DNA of 64,000 nucleotides, from the sequence record PQ351811. The stretch is one strand, 5' to 3'. Below, one piece after another: positions 2,772-64,000 of the stretch; the first letter of the stretch is position 1, and the number at the start of each line of letters is the position of its first letter. Origin of the DNA: Shigella phage SSG23. The notes beneath the pieces were generated by a model, which searched no databases, was not told the origin of the DNA, and saw only the letters and a list, made by a program, of their open reading frames with translations. The position numbers and the translations under genes are program-made.

Positions 2772-4766
2772 TTATGCCTGGTTAGCTGGACCGATAATTT
2801 CGTCAAAATCAGCACCAGTTGCAACAGCAGTGAAATTGAGCATGATATAGTTGATCGATTTTGCTGGTTTGATGAACATACTAGCAACAAATTCGTTACG
2901 ATCAATTACATCCGGCGTGTTGTTCGTGGTGTCGCATTGTACTCGGAAGTCATAAATGCCACCCAGAGAGCGAATCGTGCTGAGGTATTGCGAAACCTCC
3001 ATACGGAAGGAAGCGCGAGTAAAGTTATCGTTGTTTTCAAACAGTTTGTATTTGCTTGAATCGCCGATATTCTTTTTCAGCATATTAAACAGACGACGAA
3101 CGTTAATGCGGTCAAACGGGCTAGGAACAGTCGTAGCGGTTTTATCACCCATCAGGATAAACCCTTCACCGCCAGCACCGATTACCGGGTTAATTGCGGC
3201 TTGATACAGACGATCACGGTGCGCCTTGCGAGGCTCAATTGCCAGCTTAACCACGTTCATGATCTGACCACGGTTATAACCTGCCGGACTCATCCACGGC
3301 TGCGATACAGCATCAGTACGAGCACACAAACCAGCGATATCAGCAGCCAACGGAATCCAACGGTTTACATCGTTATATTTGTCATACTGATATTTGTAGT
3401 TACCATCAATAACCGCGTAAGTGGTATTAATGTTCATGTTGTTTTCATTATAGTTTCCTGAACCTTCGCGCCATGCAATCAGGTTATCAATTGCAGTAGT
3501 CACCGGAATATTAACAACAGTGCTACGCGGCGGAGAAACCATTACTAAGCAATCCTGACGCTCATCACCGATAGAAACAGCATGTTTCTGTACGGTAGAG
3601 AATGCATCACCTTCACCAGCACATGCACCAGCGATCAGAAGGTTTACGTGAATAGATTCACGTTCAGCAAACAGATCCCAGCCTTGCATCATCGCACTAA
3701 CAAACGGATCAGCACCAACACCAGCGGTTGCTTCGTTGGCAGAAACACCACCAGCAAGAGAAATAATGCCACTGAAACCATCTACCCAACCCTGAGCGGT
3801 TGCATAAATGTACTGGCTAGCACCACGAGCAAAGAAGTCGTCCATATAGATAGAATTGCCGTAGACGTCTTTATCTCCTTTCAGAGTAGACAGTACATAG
3901 GATTCTACCACAACACCATCGCGACGAACAATAAACGCATATTGATTATCATTCTGCGGCGCATATGGAATCAGGTTGCGTGCTGCGGTGCGCTCGCCAC
4001 CATAAGGATACATGGTCAGATCCGGTGCAGTATTCTTAAACGCACTACGTGCCAGAATTTCAACTTCCAGCGAGTTGCCAATCTCACCAGCATAGATCGC
4101 GCTTACAGCTGGCATATCATACTTCTTGAGTTTAGTCAAGAAAGTTTGATTCGTGATATTGGCGCGGGAAGTTTCCATGTCAGTTAACAGAAGACCGGAG
4201 TCGACCACAATTCCAGATACAGTGATCGATGCACCTGAGTTACCGCTATCAGAAATGATTTCTACAGTGTATCCTTCCAGTTTTGGATATGCCCCGATTG
4301 TTTTTGCGTGTGCAATCAGCTTACCAGTTGGAATAAAAATACCTTTGATCTTACCTTCCGACGAAATTTTTGTAACCTTTCCGCCAGTTTCAATTTCAGA
4401 ACTTTTGTATTTTACTTTAATTGTATCGCCAACCTTATAGTTTGAACCTTCGTTTGTGATTTCAAACTCGACGTTACCAGCTAGGGTAGTTGCGTTTTTT
4501 GCTTTTTCTTTATTCAGTACACGAACAACACGCAGGTCATTACCGTACTGGAGGAAGTTAGCCCCGCTCATGAAATAGTCTGCGGTGTTATTATCCGGCT
4601 GACCAAATTTATTAACTAATTCAACTTCATTAGTTACTTGAATAATCTGGAAAGCTGGACCCCATTGGAATTTACCTACCAGTGCCGCGCGACCAGTCGC
4701 AGATTGCACAATGGTAGTGGAGAGAGTAGTTTCTTTCGTTTCGAAACCCGGTGATAATAGAGTCAT
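2772..4766 (-). CDS. gp18: tail sheath protein gp18
   Basis: 664 aa (T4 gp18 659 aa); position between terminase and tail tube genes. Confidence 0.85.
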   Translation of the reverse strand: MTLLSPGFETKETTLSTTIVQSATGRAALVGKFQWGPAFQIIQVTNEVELVNKFGQPDNNTADYFMSGANFLQYGNDLRVVRVLNKEKAKNATTLAGNVEFEITNEGSNYKVGDTIKVKYKSSEIETGGKVTKISSEGKIKGIFIPTGKLIAHAKTIGAYPKLEGYTVEIISDSGNSGASITVSGIVVDSGLLLTDMETSRANITNQTFLTKLKKYDMPAVSAIYAGEIGNSLEVEILARSAFKNTAPDLTMYPYGGERTAARNLIPYAPQNDNQYAFIVRRDGVVVESYVLSTLKGDKDVYGNSIYMDDFFARGASQYIYATAQGWVDGFSGIISLAGGVSANEATAGVGADPFVSAMMQGWDLFAERESIHVNLLIAGACAGEGDAFSTVQKHAVSIGDERQDCLVMVSPPRSTVVNIPVTTAIDNLIAWREGSGNYNENNMNINTTYAVIDGNYKYQYDKYNDVNRWIPLAADIAGLCARTDAVSQPWMSPAGYNRGQIMNVVKLAIEPRKAHRDRLYQAAINPVIGAGGEGFILMGDKTATTVPSPFDRINVRRLFNMLKKNIGDSSKYKLFENNDNFTRASFRMEVSQYLSTIRSLGGIYDFRVQCDTTNNTPDVIDRNEFVASMFIKPAKSINYIMLNFTAVATGADFDEIIGPANQA

Positions 4767-4797
4767 TAGAATTTCCTCATCTTTTTATGCATTATCG

Positions 4798-7118
<2,321 letters not shown>

Positions 7119-52426: not shown

Positions 52427-53239
52427 ATGAAGAAAGTATTAGGTTTAATTCCCTATACTGGCAATAAAGAAAAGTTATTACCGACAATTAGTAAGTATTT
52501 CCCTAAGCACTACAAACGCTTTGTTGATGCCTTTTGTGGTGGCTTGAGCGTGTCTCTGTACGTCGAAGGTGATGTGCTGGCTAATGACTATGATCACCAA
52601 TTAATTGACGCTTACAAGGCCATTGACGAGTGTCCTGATCCGGTTTCTACGATCAAGCGGATTATTGCCGAAAATGGTTTGTCTCGCGAAGATAAAGACG
52701 CTTACATGACATTCCGTAAGAAGTATAACGAGAATCCAGATCCGCTATCGCTGTTTGTGTTGATTCAGCATAGTTTTAGCAACATTAACCGCCATAACCG
52801 GAAGGGCGAATTTAATGCTAATTTTGGTCGCCGGACTTTTAACGAAAACGCGGTAGAGCGTGTCCTGAATTTTAAGGAAGAAAACAAAGACGGTCGAATC
52901 ATTTTTACTTCTGGACGATATGACGAGATCGAGATCTTGCCAGGTGATTTCGTTTATTTGGACCCGCCGTATCTTATCACTTCTGCGGAATATAATAAGT
53001 TCTGGAGTGACGAGGAAGAGATTAAATTCTATCAGTGGGTAGAATCTATTATGGCGCGTGGTTTTCAGTTTGGTATCAGTAATGTCACGCATCATAAGGG
53101 AAAGGTAAATGATCATCTTCTTGACTTTATCAAGCGGAATGATCTAAACTGCGTCCTGTTGAATAAGACCTATTGCCTAGATCGTTCAGGTGGCAAGTCT
53201 TCTGATACGCAAGAAGTTTATGTAACTAACGTAGATTGA
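52427..53239 (+). CDS. dam: DNA adenine methyltransferase (Dam-like, alpha class)
   Basis: N-terminus KKVLGLIPYTGNKEKLLP, FVDAFCGGLSVSL (motif I) and YLDPPY (motif IV), closely resembling T4 Dam. Confidence 0.85.
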   Translation: MKKVLGLIPYTGNKEKLLPTISKYFPKHYKRFVDAFCGGLSVSLYVEGDVLANDYDHQLIDAYKAIDECPDPVSTIKRIIAENGLSREDKDAYMTFRKKYNENPDPLSLFVLIQHSFSNINRHNRKGEFNANFGRRTFNENAVERVLNFKEENKDGRIIFTSGRYDEIEILPGDFVYLDPPYLITSAEYNKFWSDEEEIKFYQWVESIMARGFQFGISNVTHHKGKVNDHLLDFIKRNDLNCVLLNKTYCLDRSGGKSSDTQEVYVTNVD

Positions 53240-53247
53240 GGTATAAT

Positions 53248-53529
53248 ATGGTAGAAATTTTTGGTTTTGAAGGTTACAACTGTAAGTATTGCCAGAATGC
53301 AAAGCGCCTTTGTGAATCGCGTAAGATCCCTTACATCTACATTCCGGTTAATGATGGTGTAGACGAAAACGGTCGTCCGGTAAAGATTGATTCTATCATT
53401 GCCGACATTCAGGATCGCGCAGGGGTAGAAGTTATTGCCACCATGCCGCAGATTTTCTATAATGGTGATTATATAGGTGGTTTTGATGAGTTCAGATCCT
53501 TTGTAGTCAAAAACAAGATTAATGGTTAA
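53248..53529 (+). CDS. nrdC: glutaredoxin/thioredoxin NrdC-like
   Basis: CKYC active site and MPQIFYNGDYIGGFDEF as in T4 NrdC. Confidence 0.75.
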   Translation: MVEIFGFEGYNCKYCQNAKRLCESRKIPYIYIPVNDGVDENGRPVKIDSIIADIQDRAGVEVIATMPQIFYNGDYIGGFDEFRSFVVKNKING

Positions 53530-53553
53530 ATACCTTCTTTGGAGGGTGAATTT

Positions 53554-54027
53554 ATGTTACTGACTGCTAAGAGTGCTAAAGAGTACAAACAAGAACTATT
53601 CGAAAAACAAGGGGGCATTTGCCCCCTTTGTCAATTACCACTTTTTGAGGATATGAGCAAAAACCATCTTGACCATGATCATGATCTAGATGGGAAAGGG
53701 CAAGGCCGCGTAAGGGGATTGCTTCATTCGTGTTGCAACCGCCTAGAAGGATCGTTGACCGGAGACTTTAAACGGTTTGGTGTTGGTGCTTTAGGTGCTG
53801 ATTTCGTTGTTTGGGCTACAAACTATGTTAATTACATCAAAGGAGACTACACCAACAATCATTTACATCCTCAATATGCTGTTGATAAAGTAAAACGATT
53901 TTCACGCTTGACACGCGCGGAGATGGTTGCTATTATGGACGCAGAAGGTTTCGATTACTGCGACGCTGATACACGAGAAGAAATCACGAAGAAGTATAAG
54001 AAACAATTCATACAAAGATTAAGATAG
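53554..54027 (+). CDS. gp49: recombination endonuclease VII (gp49)
   Basis: MLLTAK..., GGICPLCQLPL, NHLDHDHDLDGKGQGRVRGLLHSCCN match T4 endo VII zinc and H-N-H-like motifs. Confidence 0.85.
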   Translation: MLLTAKSAKEYKQELFEKQGGICPLCQLPLFEDMSKNHLDHDHDLDGKGQGRVRGLLHSCCNRLEGSLTGDFKRFGVGALGADFVVWATNYVNYIKGDYTNNHLHPQYAVDKVKRFSRLTRAEMVAIMDAEGFDYCDADTREEITKKYKKQFIQRLR

Positions 54028-54030
54028 TAG

Positions 54031-54059
54031 TTGACAATAAGAAATGGGAGTAGTAAAAT
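54031..54059 (+). promoter_or_regulatory. early promoter cassette P12 with palindromic spacer
   Basis: TTGACA, spacer with GGGAGTA/TACTCCC inverted repeat, TAAAAT, then GGAGAATCAACAATG. Confidence 0.6.
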
Positions 54060-54090
54060 ACTCCCATCTAATCAAGAAGGAGAATCAACA

Positions 54091-54351
54091 ATGCGTAAGA
54101 TGTTTAAAGCTGGTGTGGCCTATGTTTTTAAATCTGAGCAAGCACATAAAGACTTCTTAGATGATGAATACGAAGGGGTGAAAGATACCTACGAAGTCAT
54201 CAAGAATGGGTTTACTGTTCTTAAAGTGTCACCTGTTGGTTATGTAAGTGAAATAGCGGTTGATGGGAAAACATACACCGCTAAAGACTTTGACCCGCGT
54301 TGGGAATTTATGCTGCTTCCGTGTGAGCGCATTCTGTTCCGTGCTGTTTAA
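54091..54351 (+). CDS. hypothetical protein, paralog family A member 1
   Basis: ORF trimmed to ATG after leader; FKAGVAYVFKSEQ...GFTVLKV...DGKTYTAKDF. Confidence 0.5.
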   Translation: MRKMFKAGVAYVFKSEQAHKDFLDDEYEGVKDTYEVIKNGFTVLKVSPVGYVSEIAVDGKTYTAKDFDPRWEFMLLPCERILFRAV

Positions 54352-54377
54352 TTAGTGAAATGATAGAGGATTATATT

Positions 54378-54938
54378 ATGGTACAGAAAACGTATAAATT
54401 GTATCCGGCTAAGTCTTCAAATGATGCTGTTTTTGAACGAGGTCGTTATTACACTTTCCGTAGTGCAGAAACAGCCGCAGAATTTATCAAACGATGTCCG
54501 CAACATAATAAGTTCTTGTATGACGTGCTTTGTAACGGCTTTAAAGTTCTCACTGTTGATGCGATGGGGCGTGTGTATCTGGTAGAAACTCATGGGTATG
54601 AAGGTGCATCTGTTCTGATTGCTGCAAACGAGCGCAAATACTTTAAACGCATCACTAAAAAGCAGTTTGAAGAAATGAAACCAGTTAAGAAAGAAGAATC
54701 TCTGGAAGATCTGATTAACTTGTTTGGTAAAGTTCGCTCTATCTCCTTTGCGATTGAAGATGACATTACCGACAATAAAATCTTTGTCAAGAACGCGGAA
54801 GACCTGAAAGAGTTCCTTATTGAAAATAGATCTCGACTGGAAACCTTTCTTGAAAGTGAAATTATTCGACATGATACCTACGCTAAATTCAGCGCCGAGA
54901 AAGTGGAAGAACTGAAAGAGATTAAAAAGTCACTTTAA
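54378..54938 (+). CDS. hypothetical protein, paralog family A member 2
   Basis: FERGRYYTFRSAE...GFKVLTVD...NERKYFKRITK; charged C-terminal helix. Confidence 0.5.
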   Translation: MVQKTYKLYPAKSSNDAVFERGRYYTFRSAETAAEFIKRCPQHNKFLYDVLCNGFKVLTVDAMGRVYLVETHGYEGASVLIAANERKYFKRITKKQFEEMKPVKKEESLEDLINLFGKVRSISFAIEDDITDNKIFVKNAEDLKEFLIENRSRLETFLESEIIRHDTYAKFSAEKVEELKEIKKSL

Positions 54939-54941
54939 CGC

Positions 54942-54970
54942 TTGACATGATGAAACGGGAGTAGTAAGAT
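54942..54970 (+). promoter_or_regulatory. early promoter cassette P13 with palindromic spacer
   Basis: GCTTGACA, spacer with GGGAGTA/TACTCCC, TAAGAT, then GAGAGGATTATATTATG. Confidence 0.6.
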
Positions 54971-55001
54971 ACTCCCATCTAAACAACGAGAGGATTATAT
55001 T

Positions 55002-56180
55002 ATGGCTAAATTCTTTGAAGGTCATTACTATGCATTCCGTGAAGGCGGTAAAGATGAGTTTCTAGACTTTTCTCGCTATTCAATTATTCTGACCGATGCT
55101 TCGCGCCGTGGTCATATTCGAGTTGCTGAAATCGTAGAAAAGGGCTTTAAAGTATTAGAAAAAGATGACCACGGTCATGTTATTACTATTGAAGCTGGAG
55201 ATGTAGTTTATTCCGCTGAGGATATCGTTTATTATTGGTCTACTATGATTATGCACAATGAGCGCAAATACTTTAAACGTATCTCAAAAGAGGCATACGA
55301 AGCGATGAACAAGAAAGAGGATGCAATGCCGACTTACTTTGAAAAAGGTAAATGTTATTCGTTTACCCCAGAAGGTTTGCAAGAATTTAAGCGATTCTGG
55401 GGAGAGCATGACCCAGAACACAAAGAAGCCATGAAACTTGCTGATTTTGTCGAATATGGCTTTTTGGTTGAAGAAGAATTGCACGGATCAGCTACCATGA
55501 TCACCGCGAAAGGTGAAACCGTTAAGGCAGATCGTTTTTGTGATCAATGGGCTTGTGTGTTTGACGGTGGCGAATTTGAATACTTCGCGGAAATCACCAA
55601 CCATCAATTTCATTCTATGCAAGCGGAAGGTCAGCGATTTAAAGTAGGCGAACGCTACAAGCCAAATCAGCATAATTTGCCTCATTGGTTTAACACTGAA
55701 ACCGTATCCAGCCATGTTATTGAAATTGTTCAAAAGCTGGAACATGGATTTAAGGTAACTAAAGTAGATCCTTTCGGAAGTGTTGACGCGGTTGAAGTTG
55801 ATGGTGTAGAATATACTCCCAAATCTTTCGGGCTTTGCTGGTATCATCTGATCAGCAATGATGAACGTTATAACTTTGTTGAACTGCCATCTGAACCGGA
55901 AGAAGCACTAGAGGATCATGATCATCTATCTGAACTGGTTAAGCTGTTTGGTGATCTGCCGGATGGTGTAGGGGTGGCGGTAATGGGTGAAGGTGCGGTT
56001 ATCCGAAACCTGAAAGACTTTAAAAAGTTCTTGATTGACATGCTGCCTAAACTTGATGATAATCTCGATACAGATATTCAGAATCGCAAAGAAATTGTTA
56101 AAGAGACTGAAAAAGAGATCGAAGCGATTCGAGCAATTCGCCAGAAGGTGAAAGCAGTAAAGAAAAAAGTTCGTGCTTGA
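55002..56180 (+). CDS. hypothetical protein, paralog family A member 3 (internally repeated)
   Basis: 392 aa; repeats of the family A domain (FEGHYYAFREG...GFKVLEKD..., NERKYFKRISK, ...GFKVTKVD...); C-terminal coiled coil. Confidence 0.55.
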   Translation: MAKFFEGHYYAFREGGKDEFLDFSRYSIILTDASRRGHIRVAEIVEKGFKVLEKDDHGHVITIEAGDVVYSAEDIVYYWSTMIMHNERKYFKRISKEAYEAMNKKEDAMPTYFEKGKCYSFTPEGLQEFKRFWGEHDPEHKEAMKLADFVEYGFLVEEELHGSATMITAKGETVKADRFCDQWACVFDGGEFEYFAEITNHQFHSMQAEGQRFKVGERYKPNQHNLPHWFNTETVSSHVIEIVQKLEHGFKVTKVDPFGSVDAVEVDGVEYTPKSFGLCWYHLISNDERYNFVELPSEPEEALEDHDHLSELVKLFGDLPDGVGVAVMGEGAVIRNLKDFKKFLIDMLPKLDDNLDTDIQNRKEIVKETEKEIEAIRAIRQKVKAVKKKVRA

Positions 56181-56204
56181 CATGCGAAGGGAGTATGCTA
56201 TAAT
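56177..56204 (+). promoter_or_regulatory. early promoter cassette P14 (extended -10, palindromic)
   Basis: GCTTGACA, 16 bp spacer, TGCTATAAT flanked by GGGAGTAT/ATACTCCC. Confidence 0.65.
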
Positions 56205-56234
56205 ACTCCCACTTAACAACGAGAGGATTATATT

Positions 56235-56729
56235 ATGTGGGTACAAGATGTTTGGTATACTGTAACTAAAGAAAACCTTGACGCATTCAGCGACCAATCT
56301 TGCGCTAATAGTTCAATTGCTGGTATCCTTACTGATGTGTTTGGTGGTGTTGATAAAATTCGTTTTAAAGTTGTTGTTGGTTCGATGGGGGGTGTAAAAG
56401 ACCTATACACCGAAGATAAAGACCTTGATCTTGAACTTCGTCTTCGTATTGATAATGCAAGTCTAGGTTATTGGTTTGAAGATAACGAATATGAATACTT
56501 CACCCCAGCAATTAAAGTTTTTGCGACTAAACTGGAAGCTGTACTAAATATCCGACCAATTAATGTTGACGGTTATATTATCAAAAATATTCAGGATTGG
56601 GAGTTGTATCTAGATCAGATTATCCGAAATAGTAAGCAGGAAGCCGCTAATAAGAAGCGACAAGAGATTAAACAGCTTAAGGCTGAACTGGAAGCTAAAG
56701 AAAAAGAATTAGCAGAACTGGTAAAATAA
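56235..56729 (+). CDS. hypothetical protein
   Basis: 164 aa with C-terminal coiled coil (KQLKAELEAKEKELAEL). Confidence 0.5.
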   Translation: MWVQDVWYTVTKENLDAFSDQSCANSSIAGILTDVFGGVDKIRFKVVVGSMGGVKDLYTEDKDLDLELRLRIDNASLGYWFEDNEYEYFTPAIKVFATKLEAVLNIRPINVDGYIIKNIQDWELYLDQIIRNSKQEAANKKRQEIKQLKAELEAKEKELAELVK

Positions 56730-56738
56730 CTATCAACG

Positions 56739-56762
56739 AGCGGGAGAAATCCCGCTTTTTCA
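56739..56762 (+). terminator. rho-independent terminator
   Basis: Hairpin GCGGGAGAAATCCCGC followed by TTTTTC. Confidence 0.6.
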
Positions 56763-56773
56763 TAGGTGATACA

Positions 56774-58636
56774 ATGGAAAAACTAATCAAAGACATTACA
56801 GAGATCGCAACGGGTAAAGAAAACGAAGTAAGCAAAGAGAACGCGAACAAAGACGCGCGAACATTCCCGACACGTCGAGATCTGATTGCTGGTGCTGTGT
56901 CTAAACAGATTGCTAAAACCGTGTTACCTGAGCACATCTATAAAGCGCATGTAGACGGTGATATTCATTATCATGATATGGATTATGCACCCGCTATGCC
57001 GTTTACTAACTGCTGTCTTGTTAATCTCAAAGACATGTTAGAGAATGGTTTTAAATTGGGTAGCGCACAAATCGAAAGTCCTAAATCGATCGGCGTTGCT
57101 TGTGCTGTAACCGCTCAAATTATCGCACAGGTGGCAAGTCATCAATATGGCGGGACCACAATTGCAAACATCGATCAGGTTTTAGCGCCATACGTTGAGA
57201 AAACATATCATAAACACCTTGCTGATGCAGAAACCTACGGAATCAAAGCTGATACTCTCTATGCACAAGAGAAGACAGAAAAAGAAACGCTAGACGGATA
57301 TCAGGCGTTGGAATATGAGATCAACACTTTGTTCTCTACCAACGGTCAAACACCTTTTGTGACTTTAACCTTTGGTATGGGTACTAGCTGGGAAGAAAAA
57401 CTGATTCAGAAAGCGATCCTGAAAGTTCGAACTAAAGGTTTAGGTAAAGATGGTATAACTCCGGTGTTTCCTAAGCTGGTGATGTTCTTAGAAGAAGGAT
57501 TAAACCTTAAACCGGAAGATCCGAACTACGACATTAAGCAACTTGCATTGGAATGTTCTAGTAAGCGTCTTTACCCTGATTATATCTCTGCGAAGAATAA
57601 CCGTAGTATCACTGGATCTAGTGTTCCGGTTAGCCCGATGGGTTGTCGTAGCTTCCTGGGTGTGTGGCATAATGAGAAAGGCGAAGAAGTATTAGATGGA
57701 CGTAATAACTTAGGTGTTGTGACTCTGAATCTTCCGCGTATTGCACTTATTGCCGCGCGTCGTGCTGGTAAAGCGTCTGTAATGCGCAGAATTGAGCTAT
57801 TCGAACAAGAGCTAGCTAATCGTCTGCCTATTTGCTTTGATGCGCTCATGAGTCGCGTAGACGCTTTAAAAGGGGCTAAAGCCAATGTTGCTCCTGTACT
57901 GTATACCGAAGGTGCATTTTTCCGTATTCATCAAAACGATGAAATTTTGGAAGTGCTGAAAGATGGTCGCGCTAGTATCTCTCTTGGGTATATTGGTTTA
58001 CATGAAGTGTTGAGCGTCCTGTTTGGTGTTCATCCGTTTGATTCGGAAGATGCGCAGCGATACGGTAAACATATTCTTAAAATCCTGCGTCATTATACTG
58101 AAAAATGGAAGGACGAAACCGGACTTGGGTTTAGTCTTTACGGCACGCCAGCCGAGAGCCTTTGTTATCGATTTAATCGACTGGACCGAGAGCAATTTGG
58201 TATTGTTAAGGGTGCTACCGATAAAGACTGGTACACCAACTCATTCCACCTTGACGTAGACCGGAAAGTTACACCGTTTGAGAAAATCGACTTTGAGAAA
58301 GACTATCACTGGCTGGCGTCTGGTGGTATGATCTCTTATGTTGAGTTCCCGGACATGAAAAACAACATTAAAGGGCTTGAAACTGTAGTAGACTATGCAA
58401 TGGATAAATTGCACTACTTCGGTGTTAATACTCCTTCTGATGTATGTCATGTATGCGGATCTACTAAGGAAATGAGAGCGACCGAGTCTGGTTTTGTTTG
58501 CCCTGATTGCGGCAATGACAATCTGGAAAAGATGAATGTTATCCGTCGCGTTAGTGGATATCTTGGATCTGTTGACCTGCGTCCATTCAACCACGGGAAA
58601 CACTCCGAGATGGTAAACCGCGTTAAACACATGTAA
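56774..58636 (+). CDS. nrdD: anaerobic ribonucleoside-triphosphate reductase NrdD
   Basis: 620 aa; C-terminal zinc ribbon CHVCGS...CPDCGNDN and glycyl-radical motif RRVSGYLGS. Confidence 0.9.
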   Translation: MEKLIKDITEIATGKENEVSKENANKDARTFPTRRDLIAGAVSKQIAKTVLPEHIYKAHVDGDIHYHDMDYAPAMPFTNCCLVNLKDMLENGFKLGSAQIESPKSIGVACAVTAQIIAQVASHQYGGTTIANIDQVLAPYVEKTYHKHLADAETYGIKADTLYAQEKTEKETLDGYQALEYEINTLFSTNGQTPFVTLTFGMGTSWEEKLIQKAILKVRTKGLGKDGITPVFPKLVMFLEEGLNLKPEDPNYDIKQLALECSSKRLYPDYISAKNNRSITGSSVPVSPMGCRSFLGVWHNEKGEEVLDGRNNLGVVTLNLPRIALIAARRAGKASVMRRIELFEQELANRLPICFDALMSRVDALKGAKANVAPVLYTEGAFFRIHQNDEILEVLKDGRASISLGYIGLHEVLSVLFGVHPFDSEDAQRYGKHILKILRHYTEKWKDETGLGFSLYGTPAESLCYRFNRLDREQFGIVKGATDKDWYTNSFHLDVDRKVTPFEKIDFEKDYHWLASGGMISYVEFPDMKNNIKGLETVVDYAMDKLHYFGVNTPSDVCHVCGSTKEMRATESGFVCPDCGNDNLEKMNVIRRVSGYLGSVDLRPFNHGKHSEMVNRVKHM

Positions 58637-58640
58637 ATTT

Positions 58641-58673
58641 CAGCCGATCCGAAAGGGTCGGCTTTTTCGTTTT
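58641..58673 (+). terminator. rho-independent terminator
   Basis: Hairpin CAGCCGATCCGAAAGGGTCGGCTT followed by TTTTCGTTTT. Confidence 0.75.
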
Positions 58674-58679
58674 GGGGTG

Positions 58680-58707
58680 TTGACAACATGATTAGATAAT
58701 GTATAAT
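58680..58707 (+). promoter_or_regulatory. early promoter cassette P15
   Basis: GGGGTGTTGACA, 16 bp spacer, TATAAT, then CTCACATCGAAAACAACGAGAGGACAACATG. Confidence 0.65.
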
Positions 58708-58736
58708 GCTCACATCGAAAACAACGAGAGGACAAC

Positions 58737-59276
58737 ATGATGATGTTTTGTGTACTGAGCAAAGAAGTTAAACTTCGTAAACTGGAAATTGGCGATGGTG
58801 TTGTTGTTAAAATGCACGCTAGCACATTGACTAGTTTTAATTTAAAGGAAAGTTTTTTTATTAGAGGAACGGTGGTTAATATCTGCTGGAGTAAAGGCGA
58901 AGGAATCCGTAGCTTTTGCGTAATTGACGATGATAATAACCTGTATGTGATTCGCTATCATAATAATTCTATATTGGTCTATACCGACAATTCACGAGAA
59001 TTGTATACTCTTGAATTTGTTAAGCGTACTGATTGCGATCGATTTGTTCGTGCTTATGAAGAAGATGGCTGTTTTGCGACTGAAACAGAAACACATGAAT
59101 ATGTTCCTATGGAAGTAGGAGCCGAAATTAAACACAAGATCACGGATCGTATTTTTAAGGTTGTGGCGGTTGCTCATACTCAATTTGTAGCGCAAGCGCC
59201 GGATGAAGAATTTATTATCTACAATATTGGTAATGCAAGTTCTCACTTTCATAATGTACAATATCGCGATCTTTGA
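58737..59276 (+). CDS. hypothetical protein
   Basis: 179 aa ORF after promoter cassette. Confidence 0.5.
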   Translation: MMMFCVLSKEVKLRKLEIGDGVVVKMHASTLTSFNLKESFFIRGTVVNICWSKGEGIRSFCVIDDDNNLYVIRYHNNSILVYTDNSRELYTLEFVKRTDCDRFVRAYEEDGCFATETETHEYVPMEVGAEIKHKITDRIFKVVAVAHTQFVAQAPDEEFIIYNIGNASSHFHNVQYRDL

Positions 59277-59287
59277 AATAATGTGAG

Positions 59288-59839
59288 GTGACTATGAAAT
59301 CATTAAACCGTAAACGTAAAGCACAACGACACATGGAACACGCAAAATCAATTAATGTTGATATGACATTAGAACATATTGATGATGATTCATGTTATGA
59401 TGATGAACCAACAAATAAGATCCCTGTATGGATGGTTACGGTAAGAATTGACAATAAACAGATCGAAGAGACACACGATGCTTTAGCCTTGTTTCACGAA
59501 TGGCATCCGGTTAATATCGGGTGGGAGGAAAACAAAGCAAAAGGTCAATACTTCCTCACCTGTTCGTGTGGTGTAGCCGGATGCGCTGGGTATTGGGAAC
59601 CTGTTGTGATTCGGGTTAAAAAGGATACTGTACAATGGTCTGTGCGTAAAGAGCAGGGATACAGCAAAGGTGTGATCGGTACTGGCGAGAATGTGATTTA
59701 TCTTAAACGTAAAGATTACGAAGAGTGCCGGAAGTTTATTTTGAATATGCTGCGTTCTTATCCAGATGACAATTTCATGTTTGCCGGAGAGTACCTACCA
59801 GGCCGCCTGTGGTTGAAATCTCTCGAAAAATTTAAATAA
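59288..59839 (+). CDS. hypothetical protein
   Basis: 183 aa ORF with GAGGTGA RBS. Confidence 0.5.
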   Translation: MTMKSLNRKRKAQRHMEHAKSINVDMTLEHIDDDSCYDDEPTNKIPVWMVTVRIDNKQIEETHDALALFHEWHPVNIGWEENKAKGQYFLTCSCGVAGCAGYWEPVVIRVKKDTVQWSVRKEQGYSKGVIGTGENVIYLKRKDYEECRKFILNMLRSYPDDNFMFAGEYLPGRLWLKSLEKFK

Positions 59840-59843
59840 ATGC

Positions 59844-59872
59844 TTGACGGGGATCGCGAGATCCCCTATACT
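59844..59872 (+). promoter_or_regulatory. early promoter cassette P16 with palindromic spacer
   Basis: GCTTGACG, spacer GGGGATCGCGAGATCCCC, TATACT, then CACACATCAAGACGAGATAC and GGAGAATCAAATATG. Confidence 0.6.
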
Positions 59873-59914
59873 ACACACATCAAGACGAGATACAACTTTA
59901 CAGGAGAATCAAAT

Positions 59915-60067
59915 ATGTGGACTTTACTGATTTGGGAAACTGAAAACGCACAAGTAGAAATCCGTGAATACGAATACCTAAGCCCAGCTTATCTATTGGC
60001 ATCTCGCGGCGGTTACTATAAAGCGCAGATTGTAAACGAGTTCGGGGTAATTGAATATGAGTTCTGA
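59915..60067 (+). CDS. small hypothetical protein (50 aa)
   Basis: ORF 59840-60067 trimmed to ATG after promoter leader. Confidence 0.4.
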   Translation: MWTLLIWETENAQVEIREYEYLSPAYLLASRGGYYKAQIVNEFGVIEYEF

Positions 60068-60560
60068 TACATACGGCAAACTACGCTATGCCGATATTAA
60101 AGATTGTGATATGGTTAATGGTGAGGGAGTGAGAGTCTCCCTTTACGTTACCGGATGTTCACACGCATGTGATGGTTGCTTTAATTCCAGTATACTCAAT
60201 CCTAAGAACGGGGAACCATTCACCGATGATACAATGGGATTGATTCTGGATCTGCTTAGACCTGATTTTATTCAGGGGCTAACATTCTTAGGTGGAGATC
60301 CACTGTATAAACGCAATTTAAAGGGTGTACAGCGGATCATCGATGAAGTAAAATCATGGATGCCAAATAAAGATATTTGGCTATGGTCCGGTTATACCCT
60401 TGACCAATTGAATGATGAGCAAAGAAAAATTGTAGAATCGGTTGACATGTTCATCGATGGGCGTTATATTAAAGATATGCCAACGAAGAAGCCGTGGCGG
60501 GGGTCTGACAATCAAGTACAATACAAGATTGTTAATAGTATTCCCGTGAAAATTATTTGA
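60057..60560 (+). CDS. nrdG: anaerobic ribonucleotide reductase activating protein NrdG (radical SAM)
   Basis: DCDMVNGEGVRVSLYVTGCSHACDGCFN: CxxxCxxC radical-SAM cluster motif. Confidence 0.85.
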   Translation: MSSDTYGKLRYADIKDCDMVNGEGVRVSLYVTGCSHACDGCFNSSILNPKNGEPFTDDTMGLILDLLRPDFIQGLTFLGGDPLYKRNLKGVQRIIDEVKSWMPNKDIWLWSGYTLDQLNDEQRKIVESVDMFIDGRYIKDMPTKKPWRGSDNQVQYKIVNSIPVKII

Positions 60561-60570
60561 GGTGATTATT

Positions 60571-61098
60571 ATGGAATGGGAAGTTGGTAAAACTTACAAG
60601 ATTGAATGCGAAGCGTCGAAAGCCGAACTGACTAAATTTTCGTCGTCTATTAACAGATGTATTGTTGACTTGTTGGCTGGTCGCCCGTTTAGGGTAGAAG
60701 ACCTTGACGATGATGGTGATGTTAGAGAAATTACTATTATTGGTAGTAATTTCGACTCTATGACGTTAAAAGAATCCCCTATTGGTTGTTCTGGTGTGTG
60801 GTTTTGGTCGGGTGAGCGTCGTTTCTTTACCGAAGTTACTATTGAACCTAAGATTCCAGAATCGGAAGAAAAAGAAGAAGACCTAACTTTAGAACGTCTG
60901 GGTCTGCTTATGGAAGCCTACGACATTCAGTTGATCGATAAGACAGGATTGCACAATAGCATTGCTAAAATCACTACCCTAGAAGGTATTAAGAGCGTAC
61001 TGGATGGTATGCCTAGCCGGATCGGTGCTATCCGCGAATACAAGCAAACGCGCGACCGTATGATCCAATTAGAATCACGTATCAAAAATGAGAGATGA
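60571..61098 (+). CDS. hypothetical protein, paralog family B member 1
   Basis: Starts MEWEVGKTYKIE...; shares W-E-x-G-K-T-Y and RPF motifs with the next three ORFs. Confidence 0.5.
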   Translation: MEWEVGKTYKIECEASKAELTKFSSSINRCIVDLLAGRPFRVEDLDDDGDVREITIIGSNFDSMTLKESPIGCSGVWFWSGERRFFTEVTIEPKIPESEEKEEDLTLERLGLLMEAYDIQLIDKTGLHNSIAKITTLEGIKSVLDGMPSRIGAIREYKQTRDRMIQLESRIKNER

Positions 61099-61102
61099 TA
61101 AT

Positions 61103-61588
61103 ATGAAATGGGAAGAAGGTAAGACCTATAAGTTGGGTGGAGAATACGAAAAGAGTATTTTGCGTGATTGTTGGCGTTACGAACGAAGACCTAATATTGA
61201 TGGTATGTTTACATATCTCGATAAACCATTTATTGTTGCTACGGTAGACCGTTGGGGTAATGTACGTTCAATCTATAATCACGAAGGGGATTATATTAGT
61301 TCTATCGATGTTGGTGATAATATATGGTTTTCCGATGGCGACCGAGCGTGCTTCAAAGAAGTTTTATTGCCTGGTCATGAGCATGATCTAATTGATCTTC
61401 TCAAATTGGCGATGGATAATTATAAAATTCGCTTTGAATGCAAATCACATGCGGCTATCGGTGCTAATGCATTGCGTCATATCTCCAGTTTTGAAGAGTT
61501 GAAAGATTTTCTTGACAAAATGCCGGAAAGAGTGCAAGCTATACAGGAAGCAGAGAAAGCATTAAACGAACTTGATAAAATCGGTTAA
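61103..61588 (+). CDS. hypothetical protein, paralog family B member 2
   Basis: Starts MKWEEGKTYKLGG... Confidence 0.5.
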   Translation: MKWEEGKTYKLGGEYEKSILRDCWRYERRPNIDGMFTYLDKPFIVATVDRWGNVRSIYNHEGDYISSIDVGDNIWFSDGDRACFKEVLLPGHEHDLIDLLKLAMDNYKIRFECKSHAAIGANALRHISSFEELKDFLDKMPERVQAIQEAEKALNELDKIG

Positions 61589-61600
61589 GGGGAATATATT

Positions 61601-62425
61601 ATGAAATGGGAAATTGGTAAAACTTACACTTGGAAAGATGAAAAAGCTAAAACTGAGTTTATTACTAACGGTGAAGGTGTTCTTTCTCCACTTAACAGCG
61701 ATATTAGTGCAGCTATTGGTGACAAGCCATTTACCATCATCGAGATCGAGGGTAATGGTTGGATTGATGTAATAGAACTCGATGGGGTTGAGCATACGGC
61801 GAAAACTGCTACAGGAAAAGACATTTGGACTGCAACATATTTCTTTAGTCCATTCGATAGAAAATTCTTTCGTGAAGTTGAAGAAGTTCCCCAGAAATGG
61901 GAGGTTGGTAAAACTTATACTTGGAAAGATGCGAATGCTATGACCGACTTCTGTCATTATGCTGAAAACGTATCTAATCTTAATTATGTTATTGCACGAG
62001 CAATAAATTATAGACCTTTTACTGTTAAAAATGTTCGTCCATGTGGGCAAATTGATGTAATTGAAATTGATGGTAAAGACCATACTCTAATGAGTGCAAC
62101 CGAAGATAGCGACCATAAAGGAACTAGCTGGTTTATTGATTCTGATAGAAAATTCTTTCAAGAAGTAGAAGAATTGGAAGTTATAACCACTGATTCTAAG
62201 ATCGTTGGGCAATTGAAGCGTCTGTTTAGTAGTCGTTATGGCCTAACAATGGTTAAATTTGGCGAAGCAAATGAAGGTAAAACCTTTGAACGTTTCGATG
62301 ATTTCATCACAGCACTTGACAAGATGGACGAAATCATGCAAGATCGACAGAAGATTAAAGACCTTCAAGAAGACATTAACCGTCGTGAAGTTGAATTTTT
62401 GATTGGTAAAGAGCGAGGATGGTAA
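61601..62425 (+). CDS. hypothetical protein, paralog family B member 3 (two tandem domains)
   Basis: Two copies of the domain: MKWEIGKTYTWKD...FFREVEE and KWEVGKTYTWKD...FFQEVEE. Confidence 0.55.
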   Translation: MKWEIGKTYTWKDEKAKTEFITNGEGVLSPLNSDISAAIGDKPFTIIEIEGNGWIDVIELDGVEHTAKTATGKDIWTATYFFSPFDRKFFREVEEVPQKWEVGKTYTWKDANAMTDFCHYAENVSNLNYVIARAINYRPFTVKNVRPCGQIDVIEIDGKDHTLMSATEDSDHKGTSWFIDSDRKFFQEVEELEVITTDSKIVGQLKRLFSSRYGLTMVKFGEANEGKTFERFDDFITALDKMDEIMQDRQKIKDLQEDINRREVEFLIGKERGW

Positions 62426-62426
62426 T

Positions 62427-62909
62427 ATGTTTGTTGCTGGCGTGACCTATCAGTGGAAAGATAAGAAAACGAGAGAAGATTTTGCAAACTTTAGCGTTGC
62501 AAATGATGCAATAGCAGAGTTTATCGGCGACCGTCCATTTAAAGTTATTGCATTTGATCACCATGCATCGGATGTGGATTATGTTTCTGTGATTGAAATT
62601 GATGGCAAGGTGTACACCTGCTGCAATGTTGATGATGTACGGGAATACGCGCACAACTGGTTTTTGCAATCAGAAGAACGTCATTTTAAAGTGGTATCGG
62701 CAGAACTGACCACTGATGCAATGTTGGAACAATTTTTTAACAACTACGAAGTTTCTGTACGTCGATATGGTGAAGAGGAAGTATTTAAAATTGATGACTA
62801 TAATCAGTTTAAACGAGTATTCGCCACTAAGATCCAACGTGATATTGAACGCGAGAAGCGCATCAAGGAACTGGAAGAAGAACTGGAAAGATTAAAGGCT
62901 GAGAAATGA
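62427..62909 (+). CDS. hypothetical protein, paralog family B member 4
   Basis: MFVAGVTYQWKDKKTREDF...GDRPFKVIAF...VIEIDGKVYT; C-terminal coiled coil. Confidence 0.5.
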   Translation: MFVAGVTYQWKDKKTREDFANFSVANDAIAEFIGDRPFKVIAFDHHASDVDYVSVIEIDGKVYTCCNVDDVREYAHNWFLQSEERHFKVVSAELTTDAMLEQFFNNYEVSVRRYGEEEVFKIDDYNQFKRVFATKIQRDIEREKRIKELEEELERLKAEK

Positions 62910-63175
62910 TCGAGATATACGGCATACCGAAAGAGGCTTATCATTGTTATGGTTGTATTGGTGCAATGAAGCTACTGGATGATCTGGGTATTCCGTATAC
63001 ACTTAAACCAGTATTCAAGCAGGTCGGGGTTGACATTATTCCCGACCGTGATATGATTGAAGAACTGGCGGGGAGGCTGAACTCAAAGAGCCTCCGGTTT
63101 GTATACCCCCAGATATTCATTGACAACGAGCACATTGGAGGCTATAAAGAACTGAGGGCGATTTATGATTATTGA
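62906..63175 (+). CDS. glutaredoxin-like protein (NrdH-like)
   Basis: 89 aa; CYGC redox motif and YPQIFIDNEHIGGYKEL. Confidence 0.6.
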   Translation: MIEIYGIPKEAYHCYGCIGAMKLLDDLGIPYTLKPVFKQVGVDIIPDRDMIEELAGRLNSKSLRFVYPQIFIDNEHIGGYKELRAIYDY

Positions 63176-63323
63176 GAATTTAGTTTCGGTGTTCATTATT
63201 GCTTTATTTGCTATAATGGCTTTACCGTTGAATAAGTGTAAACACTGTAACGGAACAGGATTGCGTGGTGATGGGTGTTGCGCTCATTGTCATGGATCTG
63301 GTAAAGTAAGTATCATTAAGTAA
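63165..63323 (+). CDS. small membrane-anchored zinc-finger protein (52 aa)
   Basis: Short ORF below track cutoff; N-terminal hydrophobic helix, CKHCNGTG and CAHCHGSG; coordinates by eye. Confidence 0.3.
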   Translation: MIIENLVSVFIIALFAIMALPLNKCKHCNGTGLRGDGCCAHCHGSGKVSIIK

Positions 63324-63344
63324 TTCTTGAGCGAGGAATATATT

Positions 63345-63632
63345 ATGTTAGTACACAATGCAATCGCACACATGGTTTACTCTCGATTTGGACGCATGGA
63401 AGAAATCAGTATTACCGATGCAGATTTAGATCTGATGCAAGTAGAAGGTCAGACATATCTGAAAAATAACGGCGTGAATATCGGTAAAGCGCGTGTGCGT
63501 GAATTGTTGGTTGAATATATTCTCTCTGAATTTGGCATTAGTGCTTTCGGTGTGAAAGAGATTGCACCAAAGCGAGAAATCTCTGATAAGATGATCAAGA
63601 AATGCCAGAAAGCACGACGTAAGGGTTTCTAA
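63345..63632 (+). CDS. hypothetical protein
   Basis: ORF 63327-63632 trimmed to ATG after GAGGAATATATT RBS. Confidence 0.45.
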   Translation: MLVHNAIAHMVYSRFGRMEEISITDADLDLMQVEGQTYLKNNGVNIGKARVRELLVEYILSEFGISAFGVKEIAPKREISDKMIKKCQKARRKGF

Positions 63633-64000
63633 TGAAGATTGAAACATTAATCGCATTGCCAGCGGCGGGGAAAACTGATGCTATACTTTCCCACGTCCTA
63701 GAGACAAAAGAAAAAGCGGTTATTGCTTCGCCATCTCGTGTTTTAAGTGAACAATCTTACAATAAGTTTAAAAGAATGGGCGGTCGTGCTGTCTTGATTG
63801 ATAGCACAAGACTAAGAAGCCTTAAGACAGTGCAAGCGTCGATAATGCAATCAGTTAAAGACGGCGCTGATGTGATATTCATTACACACACCGCGTTATC
63901 TAATATGGAACGTTCAAAAATGTTTGGTGAATATGCTCTTTACATTGATGAAGTTCCTCAACTGGTCGAATTTAATGAATATCCGTTTAAGTCTAATCTT
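63632..64000 (+). CDS. P-loop NTPase (partial; continues beyond window end)
   Basis: MKIETLIALPAAGKTDAIL (Walker A) and ALYIDEVP (Walker B-like); start overlaps previous stop. Confidence 0.45.
   Translation, partial: MKIETLIALPAAGKTDAILSHVLETKEKAVIASPSRVLSEQSYNKFKRMGGRAVLIDSTRLRSLKTVQASIMQSVKDGADVIFITHTALSNMERSKMFGEYALYIDEVPQLVEFNEYPFKSNL

Follow-up and report, generated by a model that had tools for sequence, protein, structure and literature searches.

A tandem array of GoF-like paralogs with mosaic N-terminal domain alleles between nrdG and nrdH of Shigella phage SSG23

Shigella phage SSG23 (sequence record PQ351811) is a Krischvirus, an RB49-like T4-type phage of the Straboviridae. We analyzed a stretch of 64,000 nucleotides of its DNA (the window). 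Between nrdG and an nrdH-like gene, the window carries four consecutive open reading frames (ORFs), G1 to G4, at 60571-62909. A sequence-only reading had placed them at these limits and had described them as recently duplicated paralogs of an unrecognisable, possibly novel small binding module. Profile comparisons indicated that G1 to G4 are old paralogs and new members of the GoF/Frd.2(/MotB.1) family. With four further genes upstream of nrdD (U1 to U4), they make up an expansion that is specific to the genus and includes multi-barrel and coiled-tail architectures. Between related phages, G1 to G4 have N-terminal domains (NTDs) that occur as discrete alleles, mostly 37-58% identical, and the C-terminal domains (CTDs) are 86-100% identical. 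We consider it moderately probable that in these old GoF-family paralogs a variable barrel that binds a target sits on a helical module that stays constant, that the proteins are made early and that their barrels are exchanged as cassettes.

Genetic work on rho/nusD suppressors first brought GoF (ComC-alpha) to notice, and it is a 40-year-old T4 puzzle. Three T4 genes, each present as a single copy, led Kim et al. (2025, PMC12152347) to define the GoF/MotB.1/Frd.2 family. In their description, a five-stranded 'LSm-like' barrel at the N-terminus is joined by a flexible linker to C-terminal domains that vary, and the nearest solved structures are SH3 domains of the FeoA and IdeR types. RB49-type phages, arrays and multi-barrel proteins are not mentioned in that paper, and no earlier mention of this array was found in the literature on RB49/phi1. 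The Krischvirus NTD profile matched T4 GoF at residues 4-92 over 88 columns (hhalign 97.4%, P 1e-11; HMMER 41 bits). An earlier hidden Markov model (HMM) of 5 sequences had matched GoF end to end with 24.7 bits. T4 Frd.2 was matched at residues 2-88 (hhalign 82%, 18.5 bits), and the match to T4 MotB.1 was marginal (44%, 10.8 bits). The T4 controls MotB.2, Frd.1 and Frd.3 stayed below 3%. The PHROG cross-matches of G1 to G4 also included the goF families 2980, 13003 and 8944. The module is therefore neither unrecognisable nor novel: the NTD is a GoF-type domain of a family that is already published, and PHROGs lists the upstream paralogs as goF. Its description as a small binding module is still the best reading of the NTD.

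Scans of G1 to G4 against Pfam, NCBIfam and PADLOC gave no significant matches. Pfam and NCBIfam contain no model for GoF or for G1 to G4, and the Pfam models of LSM, Hfq and FeoA did not match the four proteins. With PF03197 (FRD2; gathering threshold of 29 bits), G1 to G4, U2, U3 and U4 were unreported even at E ≤ 1; T4 Frd.2 scored 133 bits.

The alignment also covered a GoF position known from genetics. The column of GoF G84R, the second rho-suppressor change, was well aligned; of the 59 family clusters, 28 have K/R there and only 2 have G. It is basic in G1 (R84), in both NTDs of G3 (K88 and K184), in G4 (R83), in U2 and in the first NTD of U3. As most members are already basic here, G84R restores the family consensus. 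The idea that GoF D25 corresponds to a natural aromatic residue in G1, the second NTD of G3 and G4 was dropped, because the loop that holds this position is rich in indels and no support came from the HMM alignment.

The NTD is about 90 residues long, is common to G1 to G4 and occurs twice in G3. Identity between genes is 25-35%. All the motifs quoted in the sequence-only reading were found (MEWEVGKTYK, MKWEEGKTYK, MKWEIGKTYTWKD, VAGVTYQWKD, (R/K)PF.(V/I) and VIE(I/L)DG). The third gene was confirmed to hold two full domain copies (residues 1-97 and 98-193, with FFREVEE and FFQEVEE), and the HMM gave two full NTD matches there. These copies, Na and Nb, are the closest paralog pair, with 50% amino acid and 58.7% nucleotide identity. 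In Smith-Waterman alignments, 9 of 10 NTD pairs scored 7.8-44 standard deviations above shuffled sequences (300 shuffles); the G2-G4 pair reached only z = 2.6, yet it is tied in through the remaining pairs. Blastp with composition correction gave 26-87 bits among NTDs, and all four proteins matched PHROG 5347 across its full 165-position profile (E 3e-55 to 6e-93). All-versus-all alignment, shuffles and HMM profiles thus supported homology, not a compositional artefact. The CTDs could be aligned, but direct pairwise homology was clear for G1-G2 only (z 11; about 0-4.6 for the others).

G1 to G4 lie on the same strand as nrdG (end at 60560) and nrdH (62906-63175), with gaps of 1-12 nt. Each is preceded by a Shine-Dalgarno-like GAGG, GGGG or GAGAG at a distance of 6-12 nt. 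An antisense ORF of 173 aa (61562-62083, minus strand) overlaps G3; it is without homology or other support and resembles a shadow ORF. That G1 to G4 are not real genes, being chance ORFs or products of compositional similarity, is virtually excluded. Against it stand shuffle z values of up to 44, full-length matches to PHROG 5347, the retention of the array in 58 genomes, and ratios of nonsynonymous to synonymous divergence (dN/dS) below 1 with dS reaching saturation.

The duplication does not appear recent, because identity between paralogs is low, even the closest pair being only half identical, and the four-gene layout is present in 58 of 58 Krischvirus records. Duplication and diversification held in part. 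The paralogs and the internal duplication of G3 support it, but the diversification is a cassette-like exchange of NTD alleles between phages and not simple post-duplication divergence. The charged coiled-coil tail is a candidate feature. The last 42 residues of the proteins are 36-55% charged, with hydrophobic residues at 6-7 of 12 a/d positions, and a long helix was predicted in G1.

The NTD HMM detected four further family genes upstream of nrdD (54091-56729; Table 1). The total is 8 genes with 11 NTDs in the 9 kb flanking nrdD-nrdG, of which the sequence-only reading had only G1 to G4. The HMM gave no additional matches anywhere else in the 64-kb window. The layout of G1 to G4, an NTD followed by a helical tail, is also present in U2, U3 and U4. 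U2 and U3 both matched PHROG 8944 'goF mRNA metabolism modulator' (E 9e-97 and 1e-209, respectively), and U3 gave three NTD matches (E 7e-15 to 9e-12). U1 had weaker matches to PHROG 5347, 622 and the goF family 8944. Annotators of RB49, ECD7, GEC-3S and KFS-EC had already labelled U2 and U3 as goF or Frd.2-like. The longest ORF of U2 opens at 54360; the ATG at 54378, which follows GAGGATTATATT, is the probable start of the gene.

The comparison between phages included the window and seven Krischvirus genomes (RB49, ECD7, GEC-3S, KFS-EC, 011D4, AV108 and UPWr_E1). Over 60000-63200, the window matches Shigella phage SFHK24 with 100% identity and many Escherichia Krischvirus genomes with 94-99.8% identity. 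In the seven genomes, nrdD, nrdG and nrdH had 96-100% protein identity and dS of about 0.02-0.19. The divergent NTD alleles in these surroundings are listed by gene in Table 1. Synonymous divergence was saturated in the divergent cassettes of G1, G2 and G4 (dS 1.1-1.5) and was 0.65 in G3 of UPWr_E1, whereas the CTDs next to divergent cassettes had dS of about 0.1-0.4 (G4 about 0.9). A 45-nt identity map showed sharp block edges at 60591-60900, 61131-61393 (G2), 61934-62182 (G3) and 62453-62717 (G4). The blocks open just past the conserved KWE.GKTY start of the NTD and close just before or at its R.FF.EV end. As far as our literature search showed, such domain-cassette mosaicism has been undescribed so far.

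Divergent NTD alleles shared 37-55% identity with their counterparts at the same array position, compared with 29-37% for other positions. As they are nearest to the same-position allele, they are old lineages of alleles that recombination has redistributed. Gene conversion from one array position to another was rejected as their source for the same reason. Pairwise dN/dS was 0.0-0.56 in each domain of each gene (about 0.2-0.5 in NTDs and about 0.0-0.25 in CTDs), and the genes are under purifying selection. Positive selection was considered and dropped, as the pairwise comparison gave no evidence of it: dN/dS was at most 0.56, and the divergent cassettes had saturated dS, a pattern of old alleles plus recombination.

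The NTDs of the upstream cluster are more conserved between phages (79-100% for U1, U3 and U4). In U2, the CTD (54690-54938) and not the NTD has two alleles, with 59.5% identity in ECD7/011D4 and 94-98% in other phages. A further mosaic block amid surroundings of 96-100% identity is X2 (59288-59839, PHROG 8242), between nrdD and nrdG. Its two alleles have an identity of about 50%, and dS between them is saturated. One is present in the window and KFS-EC, the other in RB49, ECD7, GEC-3S, 011D4, AV108 and UPWr_E1.

Copy number and architecture were also polymorphic. KFS-EC is without G1, U1 and U2, and G3 of AV108 is without Na. The metagenome G3 orthologs P0058-P0067 have a single NTD, and P0058 keeps Na only. 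On a 10-kb Logan contig (L010, from SRR11185258), the array is collapsed (4001-4938), and a 154-aa chimera of the G1 NTD and the G3 CTD (P0069) stands in place of G1 to G3. G4 is split there into ORFs of 64 and 105 aa, and the synteny from nrdD to nrdH is intact. A separate 816-bp contig joins the N-terminus of nrdD to the C-terminus of G4 (P0142), possibly as an assembly artefact.

An exhaustive search of 1.84 billion representative proteins with the NTD HMM gave just 52 clusters at E < 1e-3. Most of these proteins were 145-270 aa long and had one or two NTDs; in the whole search, the NTD was joined to C-terminal parts of at least three kinds and was present in 1-3 copies per protein. Tblastn with a single G3 NTD gave matches restricted to the 58 Krischvirus records, and such single-sequence searches did not link the Krischvirus genes to the T4 GoF group. 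GoF itself is single-copy in 734 records, and the expansion is therefore a genus-level feature. For the distant members P0151 and P0162, tblastn against the phage collection gave no matches. Four long proteins (P0146, P0147, P0175 and P0179; 807-1528 aa) had 4-10 matches each to a central segment of about 30-45 residues of the NTD profile; these are probably an unrelated beta-hairpin repeat.

The 3D structure of G1 was modeled using AlphaFold2 with an alignment of 45 orthologs and paralogs (mean pLDDT 76). The NTD model (pLDDT 72-90) consists of beta1, two helices, beta2-beta4, a short helix and beta5. It is predicted to be an SH3-like beta-barrel with a topology like that of FeoA; the literature calls it 'LSm-like'. 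As in the GoF family, it was predicted as a bent five-stranded antiparallel beta-sheet with FeoA-type closest structures. The linker (residues 93-103) is acidic and disordered (pLDDT < 50). In the CTD model (pLDDT 61-85), a helix is followed by two very short strands, a second helix and one long helix (147-174). The best structural neighbor of the NTD was FeoA, with 72 of 80 residues aligned, as a fold resemblance only. Foldseek of the G1 model against the PDB gave no match below E 0.3; Sm D1/D2 and U1 snRNP Sm chains appeared only as low-probability matches (E about 1). The sequence profile found no solved relative in the PDB (no match below E 0.03). Against predicted viral structures, Foldseek gave 53 matches at E < 1e-3, all to uncharacterised proteins. 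Nearly all were from T4-like phages of Aeromonas, Edwardsiella, Proteus, Morganella, Cronobacter, Citrobacter, Serratia, Pectobacterium and Klebsiella.

The expression signals were predicted. Arbiol et al. (2010, PMC2839356) described mobile PeSL promoter/terminator cassettes in the hyperplastic regions of RB49/phi1, linked to adaptive ORFans, and nrdD is PeSL-associated. In the window, PeSL-like cassettes are located directly upstream of U1, U3 and U4 (54031-54071, 54942-54982 and 56177-56216, respectively). Each has a TTGACA -35 element, a GGGAGTA(N6)TACTCCC stem-loop over the -10 element and then a GAGAGGA Shine-Dalgarno sequence. The stem-loops have minimum free energies of about -14 kcal/mol (z -2.2 to -3.2), and the cassette upstream of U4 has a 12/12 sigma-70 consensus. 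From nrdG to nrdH, no PeSL or terminator-like site was found, and an Rfam scan of 53000-64000 gave no RNA family. The predicted promoter upstream of X3/nrdG (Table 1) is likely the start of an nrdG-G1-G2-G3-G4-nrdH transcript, and G1 to G4 are probably co-transcribed early. Any single promoter site is weak evidence, because the scan gave 34 sites against 28.5 expected by chance. Right after nrdD there is a strong intrinsic terminator (58642-58663; a 9-bp stem with 6 GC pairs and a T-run). A 12/12 sigma-70 promoter without stem-loop (58680-58707) lies upstream of X1 (58737-59276, PHROG 14838).

Table 1. Family genes and predicted promoter sites in the window, with the divergent alleles of G1 to G4 in other phages
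Feature	Coordinates	Strand	Description	Divergent allele (identity; phages)
G1	60571-61098	+	175 aa; ATG at 60571, TGA ending at 61098; NTD aa 1-92 (60571-60846); acidic disordered linker aa 93-103; helical CTD and long terminal helix aa 104-175	NTD 48%, CTD 95%; UPWr_E1
G2	61103-61588	+	161 aa; NTD aa 1-88 (61103-61366) and CTD; PHROG 5347 E 2e-56	NTD 46-48%, CTD 94%; RB49, KFS-EC, 011D4, AV108; dS about 1.4 in NTD and about 0.2 in CTD
G3	61601-62425	+	274 aa; tandem NTDs Na (61601-61891) and Nb (61892-62179); CTD 62180-62422	NTD 69%, CTD 93%; UPWr_E1; other Nb allele, 31-51% nucleotide identity over 61934-62182
G4	62427-62909	+	160 aa; NTD aa 1-90 (62427-62696) and CTD; charged helical tail; PHROG 5347 E 3e-55	NTD 57-58%, CTD 86-87%; RB49, GEC-3S, KFS-EC, 011D4, AV108
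U1	54091-54351	+	86 aa; single NTD without CTD; NTD HMM E 4e-20; PHROG 16115	
U2	54378-54938	+	about 186 aa; NTD and CTD laid out as in G1 to G4; NTD HMM E 2e-13	
U3	55002-56180	+	392 aa; NTDs aa 1-97, 108-200 and 209-300; CTD and basic helical tail	
U4	56235-56729	+	164 aa; divergent NTD and CTD; coiled-coil-like tail; NTD HMM E 1.5e-16; PHROG 15067	
Predicted promoter	59844-59872	+	sigma-70-like, 10/12 consensus; upstream of X3/nrdG; equivalent site annotated in GEC-3S	
Predicted promoter-like site	60442-60470	+	11/12 consensus; within the nrdG 3' end, about 100 nt before G1	

From these observations we infer early expression, a target, oligomerization and any phenotype as follows. The barrel would be a recognition module that binds a target in the infected cell. 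A host protein of the machinery for gene expression or RNA turnover is a likelier target than RNA. The NTDs of G1 to G4 are acidic (pI 4.6-5.1, net charge -3 to -7), and the nearest folds (FeoA, Tudor, KOW and CarD-type) are largely protein-binding modules. We favor a protein target because of these two points, because wild-type GoF had no clear RNA effect in the published reporter assay and because the polymorphism would fit variable targets. The conserved, gene-specific helical module at the C-terminus would have a constant function, probably self-association or docking via its terminal helix. Homologous recombination, both among co-infecting phages and among the repeats, would generate the diversity. 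NTD cassettes may be swapped whole at their conserved ends (KWE.GKTY... and ...R.FF.EV), and NTDs or genes may be deleted, duplicated or fused.

Several points weigh against this adaptor reading. The family's one functional clue, the stabilization of gene 41 mRNA by GoF(D25Y), points to RNA (PMC12152347). In the same paper, AlphaFold3 models of GoF homodimers and hexamers were not confident. The CTD was poorly modeled (pLDDT 61-77 in the full model): AlphaFold2 on the CTD alone gave helices only, with a pLDDT of 67, which was too poor for use in a fold search. CTD homology over all four genes rests mainly on profile coverage, as most pairwise z values are low. With dN/dS below 1, the mosaic could also reflect neutral recombination in a hyperplastic region.

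It is possible, though unlikely, that the proteins are RNA chaperones or mRNA stabilizers. Their barrels would then bind RNA like LSm/Hfq, and the array would provide several proteins that regulate mRNAs of the phage or the host after transcription. Only the mutant GoF(D25Y) stabilized the gene 41 leader RNA, lengthening the half-life of the reporter RNA independently of Hfq, and wild-type GoF and MotB.1 had little or no clear effect in the same assay; the normal function of GoF is unknown (Kim et al., PMC12152347). Most members natively carry the basic residue created by G84R, and Sm chains were among the low-probability Foldseek matches, but the NTDs of G1 to G4 are acidic and a ring-forming oligomer is unsupported. 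Alleles of 37-58% identity in genomes that are otherwise 96-100% identical are unexpected for a housekeeping chaperone. Alternatively, the proteins may be counter-defence or host-range accessories, whose barrels would neutralize variable host factors, such as components of defence systems, and whose alleles would be kept by frequency-dependent selection. This is a specific version of the adaptor reading and differs from it only in target class. The discrete, old and shuffled NTD alleles beside conserved flanks agree with it, as do the presence or absence of genes and domains between phages and a hyperplastic region rich in PeSL cassettes, which have been tied to adaptive ORFans (PMC2839356). 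The T4 family members are also dispensable in the laboratory (PMC12152347). However, no defence profile was matched (PADLOC E 0.006 or worse), no family member is known as an anti-defence protein, pairwise dN/dS was below 1, and the NTDs of U1, U3 and U4 are fairly conserved. We regard this narrower version as possible, though unlikely.

The structural resemblance and the gene order raised one more explanation, that the proteins are FeoA-like iron accessories acting on FeoB-type uptake, or anaerobic ribonucleotide reductase accessories supporting NrdG/NrdD. FeoA was the best structural neighbor, and the two clusters flank nrdD, nrdG, nrdH and nrdC. We consider it very improbable. T4 goF and motB.1 are not beside nrd genes, goF orthologs being single-copy by cef (734 records), and GoF is without the metal-binding histidines of related regulators (PMC12152347). 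No feoB was found in the neighborhood of the array. As nrdD is a known PeSL-associated plastic locus, the adjacency is explained by a site of accessory-gene accumulation; a functional link to nrdD/nrdG from adjacency was rejected on these grounds, with T4 goF/motB.1 lying elsewhere.

We return to the adaptor reading for one tentative extension, which we would not rate above a conjecture. The conserved first and last about 30 nt of the NTD segments may act as built-in homology arms. The clusters would then be a recombination-driven repertoire that tunes which host factors are disabled, either defence proteins or components of Rho, RNA polymerase or RNA decay. If so, the repertoire would correspond, at the level of domains, to the shuffling of genes by PeSLs, and wild-type GoF-family proteins would be adaptors with their specificity in the barrel, which is testable. 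The natural allele swaps, deletions, duplications and chimeras in near-identical genomes are ready-made domain-swap variants. They could be used to find the barrel target, to test the specificity of the barrel against the constant tail, and to test host range or defence evasion. If the family is merely a drifting accessory family, the gain is that about 8 'hypothetical proteins' in each Krischvirus genome become better annotated.

Compared with known systems, G1 to G4 are closest to T4 GoF. Both are small acidic proteins of T4-like phages; for G1 to G4, an early-gene region is predicted from sigma-70-type promoters. Both have an N-terminal barrel, an acidic linker and the same structural neighbors (FeoA and IdeR SH3), with barrels homologous over their full length. 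GoF is single-copy beside cef, whereas Krischvirus has the 8 genes and 11 barrels described above. GoF has one barrel per chain; G3 has two and U3 three. The C-terminal part of GoF is a short beta-alpha tail, whereas G1 to G4 have a longer C-terminal module with a terminal helix of 25-30 residues. T4 Frd.2 aligns to the Krischvirus NTD profile over residues 2-88, yet the window proteins fall outside PF03197. FeoA and the DtxR/IdeR SH3-like domain, which are small beta-barrels with a helical insert, share with the NTD a fold resemblance only, at 11-15% identity. For LSm/Hfq, 'LSm-like' is a description of the GoF-family fold and not demonstrated membership. PeSL shuffling in RB49/phi1 (Arbiol et al. 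2010, PMC2839356) occurs in the same genus and type of region, and the whole-gene losses of KFS-EC fit it. However, PeSL shuffling moves genes, whereas the exchange unit in G1 to G4 is a protein domain, with edges at conserved coding ends and no PeSLs inside.

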